Assembly (NCBI GenBank): GCA_040758355.1
Contig: JBFLWF010000024.1
Span: 1-35,557, forward strand
Direction of reading: 5' to 3'
From: Nitrospirota bacterium
GTDB taxonomy: Bacteria; Nitrospirota; Thermodesulfovibrionia; Thermodesulfovibrionales; Dissulfurispiraceae
DNA length: 35,557 bases
Positions 12,001-15,000 of the stretch are shown piece by piece (position 1 is the first letter of the stretch; each line of letters opens with the position of its first letter). Made by a program: the position numbers.

Positions 12001-15000
12001 TCTCACCTGTCATGTCAAGGCCGACATCGAGGGATTGAGGTTGTATCCCGATAAGGCATATTTCTGACGGAGATATATCCATCAGTTTTGCGGCAAAAAG
12101 GACATCCGAAAGATTTATATGATGGACAGAGAGTTTTGAGTTGAGGACGGATGGGATATCGTCATTTTCGATCATCCCGATATGGCCGGGCTCTCTTCCA
12201 AAATCAACTGCATCAATAATCAGGACTTTATCGCGTCCTTCAAATATTGGCAGAAGATCGAGGCCCATGGTTCCACCATCAATTATCTCCACATCGGGAG
12301 AAAAGGTATACCTTTGTTTTATGGTGTTTGCTGCATGAACCCCGACGCCCTCGTCCCTCAAAAGGATATTACCAAGACCAATAAGTGCTATATTCAATAC
12401 CTAACCCTCTTTCTTAAAACCAAATTACGCAAGTATTGCTATATATATGGCAGCAGGTGTGCTGAAAAGGGTGCGGCTTTGATGCACACCTGCTGCAATA
12501 TCCTGCACAATTCAGATTAAAACCATTATTCTTCCTCCACTGTCTTATACCCGCTGAATATGGAGCTCATAACACCGCTCCTCTCTGCCCTGTCCAGCAG
12601 CCATCCTATATAAACATGGGCAATGGAAAAGGCGATTATCAGCCACATTACGAGGTGGTGATAGAGCCTTAAAGTCTGAGCACTGAACAGCGACAGCATC
12701 CAGCCACCCATAAGCTTCCAGAAAAAGCCAACATGGCTCTGTGAGTAAAGGGCAAATCCAGTAAGAATCTCCGCAATGAACAGGATGAATAATCCGAGAT
12801 ACACATAAGTGGCGCAAGCAGTGTGCCCCACCGCCTTAGGCGGCTCCTTTTTCAAAAACAGATAGAACTTTGTTATTTCGATTAACCCCTTAAACTTGCC
12901 TGCACTGAAGGGATTAAAGACCCTCCAGCTTGCATACTTATTCCCCGCCAGCGACCAGTATATCCTTATCAGAAAGCTCACTGCAAAAAGATACGCAGCA
13001 ACAAAATGTATGAACCTCATCCATCCCATTATGTACTGGTCAGTGGAGACGGCATGGATAAATGGATTCCCGATGTAATATCCTGTGATTGACAGAGAGG
13101 CTATACTGAGAACATTTATCCAGTGGGTCAGCCTTACAGGAAACTCCCAGACATAAACCCTCTTTAACATGGCCACCCCCTTAAATAACTTTGATTTTTG
13201 TCACTTCTCTGCCTGCCGCATCAACCACATGAACAGCACACGCCATGCACGGGTCAAAGGAATGAACGGTCCTCAGTATCTCAACCGGCTTATTAGGGTC
13301 CGCAACAGGCGTGCCTATCAGTGATGCCTCATAAGGCCCTTTCTGGCCTTTTGCATCCCTCGGCGAGCCGTTCCATGTACTCGGCACAACGCACTGGTAA
13401 TTTGCGATCTTTCCGTCTTTGATTAATACCCAGTGTCCGAGGGCGCCTCTCGGCGCTTCATGGAAGCCATATCCCCTGGCTTCTTTGGGCCATGAAGACG
13501 GATCCCATTTGTCTCCATTATGTATGCGGTAATCCCCTTTCTTCATATTTGCAGTAAGCTGGTCGAGCCATGCAGACATCATCTCTGCCGTAATTAGTGT
13601 CTCGATACCCCTTGCAGCAACACGTCCGAGGGTCGAGAATAACGCCTCAGCGCCTACTCCCAGCTTTTTGAGTACGCTGTCCACAACCTCTTTTACCCTC
13701 TTGTGTCCGGATGCATAGGCAACAAGCATCCTCGCAAGTGGTCCGACTTCCATGGGCATATCCTCGTATCTCGGCGCCTTAAGCCAGCTATATTTTTTGT
13801 TTGTGTCGAGAAACTCGTAAGGGGGCTTTGGTCCCGTGTATTTAAAACTTGTTTCTCCTTCCCATGGGTGCTTTGCCTTTGCATCTCCCTCTTTGTATTC
13901 ATACCATGAATGGGTCACATACTCCATAATCTTTGTGTGGTCAACAGGATGGACCTTGCTTAAATCCTTGTTCTTTATAATTCCCCTCGGAAGCCACAGA
14001 TTTTTAGTATCGATCGCATTATCATTAGGGAATTCGCCACAGGCAAGGAAGTTCCCGACACCGCCGCCGTAATTTGCCCACTCTTTATAGAATGAGGCAA
14101 CAGCCAACAGATCAGGAATATATACATTCTCGACAAACTCAAGGGCCTTCTTTGCCAGCCCTGACATGAATGCAATGCTGTCTGCGTTTAAGGCATTCTG
14201 GCTGTTTGGGTCAATGGGTATGGACATGCCGCCGACAAGGTATGTCTGTGCATGGGGATTCTTTGCACCCAGCAGTGCCTGAATCTTTATCACATCCCTC
14301 TGCCAGTCAAGGGCCTCAAGATAATGGGCAACTGCCATGAGATTTGCCTCAGGCGGGAGTTTATATGCAGGATGCCCCCAGTAAGCATTGGCAAATGGGC
14401 CGAGCTGTCCGCTGTCCACAAGGGCCTTTACTTTAGTCTGAATGCCTTTGAAATAGGATGCAGATGACTTGGGCCAATCCGAAATCGACTGTGCAAGCGA
14501 TGATGTCTTTACAGGGTCAGCCTTAATGGCGCTCACAATATCAACCCAGTCAAGGGCGTGCAAGTGATAAAAGTGTATTACATGATCCTGAACATATTGT
14601 ATGCCTGTAATAAGGTTCCTGATTATCCTCGCATTATCCGGTATTACAATCCCCAATGCACTTTCTACCGCTCTCACGGAGCTGGTGGCGTGAACCGTTG
14701 TTCAGACGCCTCATATTCGCTGGGTAAATGCCCATGCATCTCTCGGGTCCCTGCCCTTAAGGATAATCTCTATTCCCCTGAACATGGTGCTGGATGACCA
14801 TGCATCCACCACCTTGCCGCCTTCTACCTGTGCCTCGATCCTCAGATGACCTTCAATCCTCGTAATAGGGTCAATTGCTATTTTTGCCATAAAAAACCCT
14901 CCTCATTATTTTCATTTACTCTCGCCGCTTTCCTTTTTCTTTGCAGAGCTTGCTATAGCGTGTGCTGCCACGCCGGCTGCTGCTGCCGCTGCTATGCCGA

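Follow-up and report, generated by a model that had tools for sequence, protein, structure and literature searches.

Two in-frame UGA codons, probably read as selenocysteine, at the N-terminal ligand positions of a group 1 [NiFe] hydrogenase from a Nitrospirota bacterium

The window, i.e., the whole 35,557-nucleotide stretch of contig JBFLWF010000024.1 that was analyzed, carries a hydrogenase operon with the following genes and codons.

11709..11948, minus strand: HypC/HybG chaperone
11900..12397, minus strand: HyaD/HybD maturation endopeptidase (TIGR00140 above cut-off)
12526..13176, minus strand: Ni/Fe-hydrogenase b-type cytochrome subunit (TIGR02125 above cut-off)
13181..14890, minus strand: large subunit of a group 1 [NiFe] hydrogenase (569 aa, two TGA codons in frame), with a C-terminal extension past His554
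13238..13249, minus strand: Cys548 (TGC) and Cys551 (TGT) in DPCMACAVH, the C-terminal ligands, equivalent to HyaB C576 and C579
14702..14704, minus strand: TGA codon 63 (U63), equivalent to HyaB C79, Ni-Fe bridging position
14711..14713, minus strand: TGA codon 60 (U60), equivalent to HyaB C76, terminal Ni ligand position
14912..15982, minus strand: small subunit with a Tat signal; its proximal-cluster motif is CAGD, with Asp for a Cys, where HyaA/HoxK have CTCC
19934..22324, minus strand: HypF carbamoyltransferase, 4 kb upstream of the operon

Under translation table 11, the large-subunit gene fell into ORFs of 59 and 498 aa. Read-through translation from 14890 to 13181 yielded a protein of 569 aa; it contained no in-frame TGA codons other than two, both located in QRIUGVUTTVH. 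A preliminary description of this locus had joined the two ORFs (g02066 and g02065) into one gene with TGA at both N-terminal Cys codons and DPCMACAVH at the C-terminus, and had cautioned that annotation pipelines may split it; the translation reproduced the former, and database records of 59-aa and 498-aa products bore out the latter. Contigs of two further studies covered the stretch with 21 and 12 differences, and none of the differences listed was in either TGA codon. The two in-frame TGAs are neither chance nor an assembly error. The plus strand of the locus contained many stops, and nothing was found on it.

On alignment with HyaB, the residues E28, R74, C76, C79, H83, and D118 corresponded to E13, R58, U60, U63, H67, and D102, and R509, D574, C576, C579, and H582 corresponded to R481, D546, C548, C551, and H554. 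The L1 and L2 metal-binding motifs and the equivalents of the catalytic Glu, Arg, and Asp were all intact. The earlier placement of U60 at the terminal and U63 at the bridging ligand position agrees with this mapping, and the ligand roles are predicted as assigned in PMC13582414. A structural model with Cys in place of Sec reached a pLDDT of 83.8, and the closest solved structure was PDB 3MYR (E 2e-227 by sequence; TM 0.92 and 58% identity by fold).

The operon encodes what appears to be a membrane-bound uptake enzyme of group 1, as had been proposed, judging from the Tat small subunit, the cytochrome b, the C-terminal extension with its protease, and the placement among group 1 references in the tree. 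TIGR00391, TIGR01409, TIGR02125, and TIGR00140 all exceeded their cut-offs in the operon, hypD and hypF were both present in the genome, and this was its only group 1 large subunit. In the trees (FastTree for 163 rows; IQ-TREE LG+G4 for 37 rows), the protein and a single record titled 'hydrogenase, group If' (75% identity; known by record name) formed a clade with 100/99 support, apart from HyaB/HoxG and HybC. By sequence it is a group 1 hydrogenase, probably 1f-like. The six-Cys proximal cluster of the O2-tolerant subgroup 1d was absent, with CAGD here against CTCC in HyaA and HoxK, and all 59 UxxU small subunits parsed carried CxxD or CxxN. Identity with the canonical [NiFeSe] enzyme (group 1a HysA) was rejected because the C-terminal motif is DPCMAC instead of DPUxxC, the HysA model scored 428.5 bits against a cut-off of 780, and the canopy Asp is kept as D102. 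Identity with group 4, in which the large subunit belongs to an antiporter-like complex, was also rejected, as operon and sequence are those of group 1.

Apart from the in-frame TGAs themselves, nothing suggested that TGA is read as Trp, Gly, or Cys throughout the genome. Of 1263 ORFs with 300 codons or more, 380 ended in TGA; use of TGG, TGT, and TGC was normal, and at default stringency tRNA-Sec was the only tRNA detected with a UCA anticodon. Global reassignment, to which we give practically no probability, was therefore ruled out, TGA being a normal stop elsewhere. The genome encodes the machinery for selenocysteine: selA, selB, and a Sec-type selD exceeded their cut-offs, and the tRNA-Sec carries UCA and G73. 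One SelB per genome was found in 79 of 80 genomes. A hairpin and a candidate second RNA element lie downstream of U60.

14667..14686, minus strand: SECIS-type hairpin with the apical loop CGUGA at 14678-14674, +24 from U63 and +33 from U60
14687..14710, minus strand: candidate second RNA element, a hairpin whose stem includes the second UGA (core 14704-14691; AACG loop)

As in other selenoproteins, the in-frame UGAs were aligned with Cys of homologues, and a SECIS hairpin with a G in its loop followed U63. Pairing in this hairpin was 80.7%, compared with 75.1% when shuffled and 37-58% when slid. Covariation was 0.194 versus 0.126 for shuffled alignments (0/500) in an alignment of 32 hand-picked loci from which the structure itself was derived, with two of five covariation measures not above the shuffles. 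The GUG of the loop is the codon of Val72, which database annotation wrongly takes as the start of the 498-aa fragment; GTG at this codon was the top or joint-top synonymous constraint, present in 67/68 UxxU and 16/16 CxxU genes and in 1/22 CxxC genes. In ten other hand-picked TGA-for-Cys candidates of the genome, the hairpin G lay in or near the first two loop positions, and the loops were located at +18 to +30; the 33 nt from U60 to the loop fall outside this range.

Matches to the large subunit were found in 231 of 317 genomes of the order, with 150 places among the matches listed and 101 further places. Two TGAs were counted in 96 of the 150 listed places, one in 18, none in 30, and TAA/TAG only in six, which reproduces the table given earlier with one small correction, namely that G011, counted among the 96, contains an internal TAG as well. 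Synonymous variation was seen in the Gly61 and Val62 codons that separate the two TGAs, as described before. The motif was read in 110 of the 150 listed places, giving 69 UxxU, 18 CxxU, 23 CxxC, and no UxxC. DPCxxC was present in 109 of these, the remaining one being cut off, and in all 57 genome-wide matches with the motif in view. Thus, UGA60 without UGA63 occurred in none of the 110 places of the order, and in two matches of the whole metagenome collection, on which the UxxC scan had no positive control. CxxU was widespread (75 of the 109 matches listed in the scan), and N-terminal Sec codons recurred in four group 1 clades, UxxU appearing in separate clades at the same ligand.

These counts also bear on the possibility that the locus is a pseudogene, or a split gene making the 59-aa and 498-aa peptides. 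Records of such products exist, 56 of the best 120 protein matches are fragments of this kind, the cultured species Dissulfurispira thermophila, a named member of the 498-aa fragment cluster, appears to carry the gene with the same truncated annotation, and codon 72 is nearly invariably GTG. However, both N-terminal ligands and His67 would be missing from the two pieces, codons 60 and 63 were TGA and never TAA/TAG in 87 of 87 Sec-type loci, and, G011 excepted, the remainder of the gene was undamaged in the 69 UxxU loci that were read. Moreover, the GTG belongs to the SECIS loop and is replaced by GCG, GTC, TCG, or ACG in other Sec-type clades. A defective or split gene is consequently very improbable.

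The second hairpin was suggested by codon usage. Thr65 was ACG in 65/69 UxxU genes versus 2/18 CxxU genes, and the constraint was confined to UxxU genes, which hints at an additional RNA element. Among independent pairs, 3.7 of 5 pointed in the same direction and none in the opposite one (p 0.125), so that the contrast was not significant after phylogenetic correction, and no signal was obtained for Val66. No covariation was found in the hairpin at 14687..14710, the 60-nt region folded no better than shuffles (z -0.79), and neither hairpin emerged from an RNAalifold consensus of 69 UxxU sequences, a probable effect of differing bulge registers. In the UxxU clade of Desulfobacterota, residues 65-66 are different and the hairpin at 14687..14710 is not shared.

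Alternatively, the tandem UGA could be retained chiefly because it makes expression depend on selenium, as a switch, or a near-cognate tRNA aided by the hairpin at 14687..14710 could read U60, with catalysis indifferent to selenium at position 60. Position 60 does flip often (the UxxU label required 12 changes on the tree, seven of them forced by strong branches), Sec-type and Cys-type paralogues coexisted in eight genomes among those read, and the UxxU-specific element starts 6 nt past U60, too near for a normal SECIS. On the other hand, UGA60 is almost never found without UGA63, a switch would not need to be placed at a ligand, and separate clades carry UxxU at the same ligand. We consider a switch or near-cognate reading quite unlikely.

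The genome also encodes a tRNA of the SelC*/tRNA-ReC type (G000:C71:196-316), which is tRNA-Sec-like, with a GCA anticodon, U73, an 8-bp acceptor stem, and a very long branched variable arm, and which occurs in addition to a canonical selC. SelC* was detected with the Rfam tRNA-Sec model below its cut-off; relaxed ARAGORN gave mostly noise and missed it. According to the parts of PMC11415595 consulted, tRNAs of this class decode Sec UGA as Cys through SelB, and the passages of Mukai et al. 2017 (PMC5389517) place SelC* in Thermodesulfovibrio and Nitrospirae. By analogy with these excerpts, the tRNA described here may be charged with Cys, bind SelB, and decode UGA; therefore, Cys could compete at both UGAs. 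No second SelB or CysRS dedicated to SelC* was found.

It is accordingly conceivable that SelC*, brought by SelB, regularly decodes at least one of the two UGAs as Cys, U60 being the likelier, which would make the working enzyme CxxU or CxxC. Besides the presence of the tRNA, this agrees with the enrichment of SelC* with group 4 UxxU (56% vs 2.3%) in Takano et al. 2026 (PMC13582414) and with five genomes in which SelC* and a gene for a hydrogenase large subunit are no more than about 2.5 kb apart. In four of these five, however, SelC* stands beside a Cys-type gene, and no enrichment with UxxU was seen in the order: SelC* was detected in 52/96 UxxU, 11/18 CxxU, and 10/27 CxxC-only genomes (Fisher p 0.62 and 0.13, kin not being independent). 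Strict filters did not detect it in 44 of the 96 UxxU genomes, of which 25 reach a completeness of 95% or more, absence from metagenome-assembled genomes being weak evidence. Of 20 low-scoring matches, most of them taken from UxxU genomes in which SelC* was undetected, 19 proved to be ordinary tRNA-Sec. SelC* adjoins a selenium LysR regulator in this genome; of 30 loci, 13 had such a regulator as a neighbor and at least 11 had a YeeE/YedE transporter, an arrangement that suits a back-up for low selenium better than routine use. The retention of TGA over many families would also make little sense for a product that always contains Cys. Routine reading as Cys is thus unlikely, although it should be kept in mind.

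The likely explanation is that the locus encodes a cytochrome-b-anchored, periplasm-facing H2-uptake hydrogenase in which SelB-dependent recoding at the two UGAs yields the complete large subunit, with Sec at 60 and 63 and Cys from SelC* as a back-up. When selenium is replete, Sec-tRNA-Sec would place Sec at position 60 (terminal) and position 63 (bridge), giving Ni with two Se and two S, while the proton-transfer Cys548 would remain sulfur. The single in-frame SECIS would serve U63 at a normal distance and probably U60 as well, perhaps aided at U60 by the second hairpin shortening the spacer. Under low selenium, genomes with SelC* could probably insert Cys at the same UGAs and produce S/Se mixtures; genomes without SelC* would keep a Cys-type paralogue instead. 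Electrons would flow from H2 to quinone in this dsrAB-bearing anaerobe. The preliminary description had proposed a Ni-Fe site with two Sec ligands: its reliance on UGA recoding by Sec machinery stands, but it overlooked SelC*/tRNA-ReC, and two Sec are likely rather than certain because this tRNA class is reported to put Cys at Sec UGA. A more far-reaching proposal, which we put forward only tentatively, is a widespread, naturally occurring [NiFeSe2] uptake enzyme that predominates in a single bacterial order and has evolved anew in other clades of group 1; its two UGAs, separated by nine bases, would be served by one SECIS together with a spacer-looping hairpin, and SelC* under a selenium-sensing LysR would provide a Se/S switch that follows selenium supply.

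The claimed novelty, the 'reverse of all described [NiFeSe] enzymes', was overstated. In silico, Takano et al. 2026 described 16 UxxU, 27 CxxU, and four UxxC N-terminal variants in group 4, i.e., 47 of 23,473 sequences in nine phyla, none of them Nitrospirota in the portions consulted, and two group 1 and one group 3 CxxU sequences were known earlier (Baltazar 2011, as cited in part of PMC13582414). No report of group 1 UxxU was found; Baltazar 2011, Vargas-Rodriguez 2018, Greening 2016, or the Takano supplements could list group 1 or Nitrospirota cases. The passages seen of the Lost City (PMC9469722) and Chloroflexi (bioRxiv 2021.08.23.457424) studies make no mention of Sec in these enzymes. 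As databases keep these genes in pieces of 59 and 498 aa, surveys requiring both motifs may arrive at too low a count of H2 uptake in Thermodesulfovibrionales, Desulfobacterota, and Chloroflexota. Natural [NiFeSe] hydrogenases attract study as H2 catalysts, and their biochemistry, as described in the sources consulted, is concerned with the C-terminal Sec. If the reading with two Sec is true, a natural enzyme with selenium in these two N-terminal positions, terminal and bridging, would allow the roles of those ligands to be tested. The gene would also be a model for the decoding of two close UGAs and for the purpose of SelC* tRNAs.

Compared with known systems, the enzyme resembles the group 4 variants in its N-terminal Sec codons, C-terminal Cys, apparently single SECIS with a loop G, SelC* caveat, and recognition from UGA read-through alone. 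Unlike those rare, energy-converting enzymes, it is a group 1 uptake hydrogenase with a Tat small subunit and cytochrome b, and UxxU is the majority among the closest orthologues listed for the order, with no SelC* enrichment. It shares group 1 and a Sec predicted at the bridging N-terminal position with the CxxU sequences of Baltazar 2011, as far as the citing passage describes them, but those are two sequences with a single Sec, and here a second Sec codon is found at the terminal position. With canonical [NiFeSe] enzymes (HysA of Desulfomicrobium baculatum, 1CC1, and Desulfovibrio vulgaris; groups 3a/3c), it would share a Se ligand to Ni specified by UGA and SECIS, and anaerobic sulfur-cycling hosts; unlike them, the C-terminal Sec position is Cys548, and the canopy Asp, replaced by Ser in HysA (PMC8020662), is kept. 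The Allochromatium vinosum [NiFe] hydrogenase (3MYR) differs in its all-cysteine active site. The SelC* resembles that of PMC5389517, as excerpted, in GCA, U73, the tRNA-Sec-like fold, and co-occurrence with selABCD, and differs in the lack of a second SelB/CysRS and in its unusually long, branched variable arm. The closest engineered counterparts are the E. coli Hyd-1 variants C76U and C79U, altered at the same two positions and active, with KM values for H2 of 21.9 and 5.3 versus 36.8 μM (Evans et al. 2021, PMC8020662). They retained 3% and 13% of solution activity, respectively, and both ranked below native Hyd-1 in O2 tolerance, so that a gain in O2 tolerance, a property of interest in the preliminary description, is not suggested. 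Those variants are single substitutions, with no double variant among those listed, on a group 1d scaffold with a six-Cys proximal cluster; C79U hints at high H2 affinity, as might matter in low-H2 subsurface habitats.

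Read-through translation of the hydrogenase large-subunit gene (14890–13181, minus strand) gave a 569-aa product in which TGA occurs in frame exactly twice, as codons 60 and 63 (U60 and U63) of the motif QRIUGVUTTVH, which bears out the preliminary description of two TGAs in one 569-aa gene. Standard gene calling splits this gene into pieces of 59 and 498 aa. The C-terminus reads DPCMACAVH, followed by a 15-residue extension. The region was composed as follows.

14890–13181, minus strand: large subunit, TGA at codons 60 and 63
14687–14710, minus strand: candidate second hairpin
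14667–14686, minus strand: SECIS-type hairpin
14912–15982: Tat-signal small subunit
Other operon neighbours of the large subunit: cytochrome b, HyaD protease, HypC
4 kb upstream of the hydrogenase genes: HypF
16133–16978, plus strand: Clp1-like P-loop protein (PF16575), divergent from the hydrogenase operon

On alignment, U60 and U63 corresponded to C76 and C79 of E. coli HyaB, and C548 and C551 to C576 and C579; HyaB E28, D118, R509, D574, and H582 had exact counterparts. A model with Cys substituted for Sec showed a pLDDT of 83.8 and a TM of 0.92 to 3MYR. The named relatives (77–86% identity) were labeled Nitrospirota or Thermodesulfovibrionales. The genome (G000) contains dsrA and has no further large subunit of group 1; another, distant one is present on contig C34. 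Judged by its sequence, the enzyme belongs to group 1 and is predicted to act as an uptake hydrogenase. Orthologues are denoted by Sec (U) or Cys (C) at positions 60 and 63, as UxxU, CxxU, UxxC, or CxxC. The proximal motif of the small subunit was CxxD or CxxN in 59/59 UxxU and 14/14 CxxU loci parsed (CCGN in some), and CxxC in 6/12 CxxC loci.

As TGA closes 380 of 1263 long ORFs in G000, it is a normal stop codon there. The genes selA, selB, and selD all scored above their cut-offs, SelD with its own in-frame TGA, and the tRNA-Sec has a UCA anticodon and G73. Since selA was found in 283/317 genomes of the order, it is a necessary background without discriminating power. The eighth acceptor pair of the tRNA-Sec (C17:30918-31015) and its relatives (L294–L312) is mostly mismatched, C-A in G000; in G004 and G005 it is paired. 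Ten other TGA candidates were picked by motif from 181 read-through candidates in G000, and their hairpin loops begin at +18 to +30. Besides SelD, they presumably include FdhA, peroxiredoxin, and YeeE.

C4:100510, C4:102417, C9:59395, C29:11909, C12:55423: TGA-for-Cys candidates with SECIS-like hairpins
C4:90495, C17:47896, C3:41978, C1:239960: further such candidates

These candidates include two PDGUP-motif paralogues, one CxxxxU protein, and one QRGRYU protein, which we take to be YeeE-like.

The loop of the hydrogenase SECIS-type hairpin (CGUGA) lies at +24 from U63 and +33 from U60. In 32 hand-picked loci, the hairpin was paired in 80.7% of cells, as against 75.1% when shuffled and 37–58% when slid, and covariation was 0.194 against 0.126 for shuffles (0/500), while two other covariation measures did not exceed shuffles. 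Folding energy by itself was unremarkable (z −0.79). Independently of folding, Val72 GTG (67/68) came lowest when 186 four-fold sites of UxxU genes were compared for third-position entropy, and it tied for the lowest in CxxU genes (16/16); it occurred in 1/22 CxxC genes.

A tRNA-Sec-like gene at C71:196-316 (minus strand; L122, L124), detected by an Rfam search and missed by ARAGORN, is SelC*/tRNA-ReC: it carries U73 and a GCA anticodon, its acceptor stem has 8 bp, and its variable arm is branched and very long. Relatives vary by as much as about 40 nt in the stretch from anticodon arm to T arm. Passages of Mukai 2017 (PMC5389517) record SelC* from Thermodesulfovibrio and Nitrospirae, others in PMC7609411 also describe it, and those of a 2024 review (PMC11415595) state that the GCA form reads Sec UGA as Cys via SelB. 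Using a sequence model with a 44-bit threshold, SelC* was counted in 52/96 UxxU, 11/18 CxxU, and 10/27 CxxC-only genomes; thus, SelC* was not enriched with UxxU in this group 1 set, unlike in group 4. SelC* was not found in 44 UxxU genomes, 25 of which are ≥95% complete, though tRNA genes are frequently left out of assemblies. All 30 top loci had a GCA anticodon, as did 14 of the 20 matches with middling scores or ambiguous identity; the other six were 2 tRNA-Sec below the threshold and 4 that could not be parsed. Of the low-score matches, 19/20 were tRNA-Sec.

In G000, SelC* lies directly downstream of a selenium-associated LysR (NF040786, 321 bits vs. a cut-off of 250), a close homologue of which adjoins SelC* in 13/30 loci, and YeeE/YedE transporters made up 11/18 scanned ORFs neighboring SelC*. 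LysR_Se and YedE are selenium-homeostasis genes according to passages of a review (PMC9312934). We infer that SelC* is a back-up for low selenium. It often precedes a YeeE/YedE gene, and its L152 copy overlaps the beginning of a selB-like ORF. SelC* also lay 0.85–2.4 kb from a hydrogenase large-subunit gene in G302:C214, G316:C8, G300:C261, G036:C3, and G034:C230; four of these five genes were copies of the Cys type, which hints that they share a low-selenium regulon. The cysS open frame of G000 (C14:65120-67290) spans 723 aa and starts with a presumably CysE-like sequence, so that either cysE and cysS are fused there or two genes follow each other in frame with no stop codon between them. The two Sec ligands claimed previously are supported by the Sec machinery and the hairpin; SelC* in G000 complicates the "two Sec" part. 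The recoded gene is real, and given available selenium its product is most likely an enzyme with two Sec.

The order search, with 150 of 251 places listed, reproduced the earlier counts of 96 places with two TGA, 18 with one, 30 with none, and 6 with TAA/TAG only, except that one of the 96 also carries a TAG. That one (G011:C43, L014), whose UxxU reading frame the TAG interrupts, is likely a recent pseudogene or assembly error. Among the 110 places read, 69 were UxxU (nine families), 18 CxxU, 23 CxxC, and none UxxC; DPCxxC was present in 109, the remaining one being cut. Two further studies supplied contigs that cover the region; they show 21 and 12 differences, and the two TGA codons were unaffected among the differences listed, although sequencing run X1 may be where this DNA originated. 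The two TGAs are not a chance occurrence.

A second RNA element in UxxU genes is possible. Thr65 was ACG in 65/69 UxxU vs. 2/18 CxxU and 9/23 CxxC genes (background, 14–20%), the biggest UxxU–CxxU difference of 142 four-fold sites; in 5 independent pairs, 3.7 went in the same direction and 0 in the opposite (p 0.125). A candidate hairpin with the second UGA in its stem (probability >0.5) was predicted in 59/69 UxxU, 8/18 CxxU, and 4/23 CxxC genes, with a z of −2.35 in G000 and no covariation. As the conserved G is in its loop, pairing does not account for the G of Thr65, and the Desulfobacterota UxxU clade lacks the element. In a speculative mechanism, the hairpin, if real, would loop out 14 nt and place the SECIS at about +20 from U60, in the usual range of the genome, and would melt while the ribosome advances to U63.

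A pattern demanding TGA at the second site gave at least 120 loci, of which 109 matched P0001 by BLASTP (75 CxxU and 34 UxxU, some duplicating the order set). Among the matches listed, DPCxxC was present in 57/57 with the C-terminal motif in view, and labels included Nitrospirota, Thermodesulfobacteriota, Chloroflexota, Bacillota, Spirochaetota, and Methylomirabilota. In a tree with references, N-terminal Sec occurred in four clades: that of the present enzyme (with a record named "group If"), a Desulfobacterota clade, the HybC clade, and a distant, long-branched one that includes Bacillota sequences. UxxU appeared in three of the four. The UxxU label requires 12 changes, 7 of them forced, on 163 unrooted rows in which gain and loss are indistinguishable; G101 (CxxU) and G064 (CxxC) were nested among UxxU rows. 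Separate UxxU lineages comprise a QRTUGVUTMTH type in Desulfobacterota (L158, L170, L184, L188, L204, and L226), a single divergent sequence from Nitrospirota (L194), and a distantly related PRTUGVUPITH type (L222 and L258). Within the HybC (group 1c) clade, CxxU was seen in L182, L185–L187, L189, L211, L214, L217, L221, and L224, which come from Nitrospirota, Nitrospinota, Spirochaetota, and Desulfobacca.

A stricter UxxC pattern without a positive control, whose prefix suits 102/109 second-site-TGA loci, matched twice across all metagenome contigs. The first match lacks the loop G; the second (L315), which has the same hairpin as its Syntrophomonas CxxU relatives L201 and L231, is possibly a real group 1 UxxC. 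As UxxC is nearly absent, U60 seems dependent on U63. The best 120 protein matches comprised 64 full-length records, all CxxC in a collection that may not retain U, and 56 fragments. The 498-aa cluster contains BCB96681.1 of Dissulfurispira thermophila, and by this annotated fragment, a cultured host is likely.

The UxxU enzyme is a member of neither the canonical HysA [NiFeSe] family nor the group 4 N-terminal-Sec set. In the literature searched, which left out most subscription papers, no report of group 1 UxxU was found. In HydDB Table 1 (PMC5037454), the subgroups flagged as having [NiFeSe] variants are 1a, 3a, and 3c, and the table of a 2026 selenoproteome review (PMC13188914) gives only UxxC for hydrogenase alpha subunits. 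In Evans 2021 (PMC8020662), C76U and C79U were made singly, with solution activities of 3% and 13%, KM of 21.9 and 5.3 vs. 36.8 μM, and O2 tolerance below native. Evans 2024 (PMC11212049) deals with the proton-transfer cysteine, a position that is sulfur in the UxxU enzyme. The claimed novelty of an N-terminal two-Sec motif did not hold, as Takano 2026 (PMC13582414) describes N-terminal Sec in 47 sequences of group 4; 16 of these are UxxU, a form called previously unrecognized there. Takano 2026 also credits two group 1 CxxU to Baltazar 2011, proposes a single SECIS for both UGAs, raises the tRNA-ReC caveat, and leaves out groups 1–3. The UxxU motif is therefore no longer unprecedented, and it is dominant in a group 1 lineage. 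UxxU is directly testable on account of this dominance, of a host that is likely in culture, and of the questions raised by SelC* and the second element.
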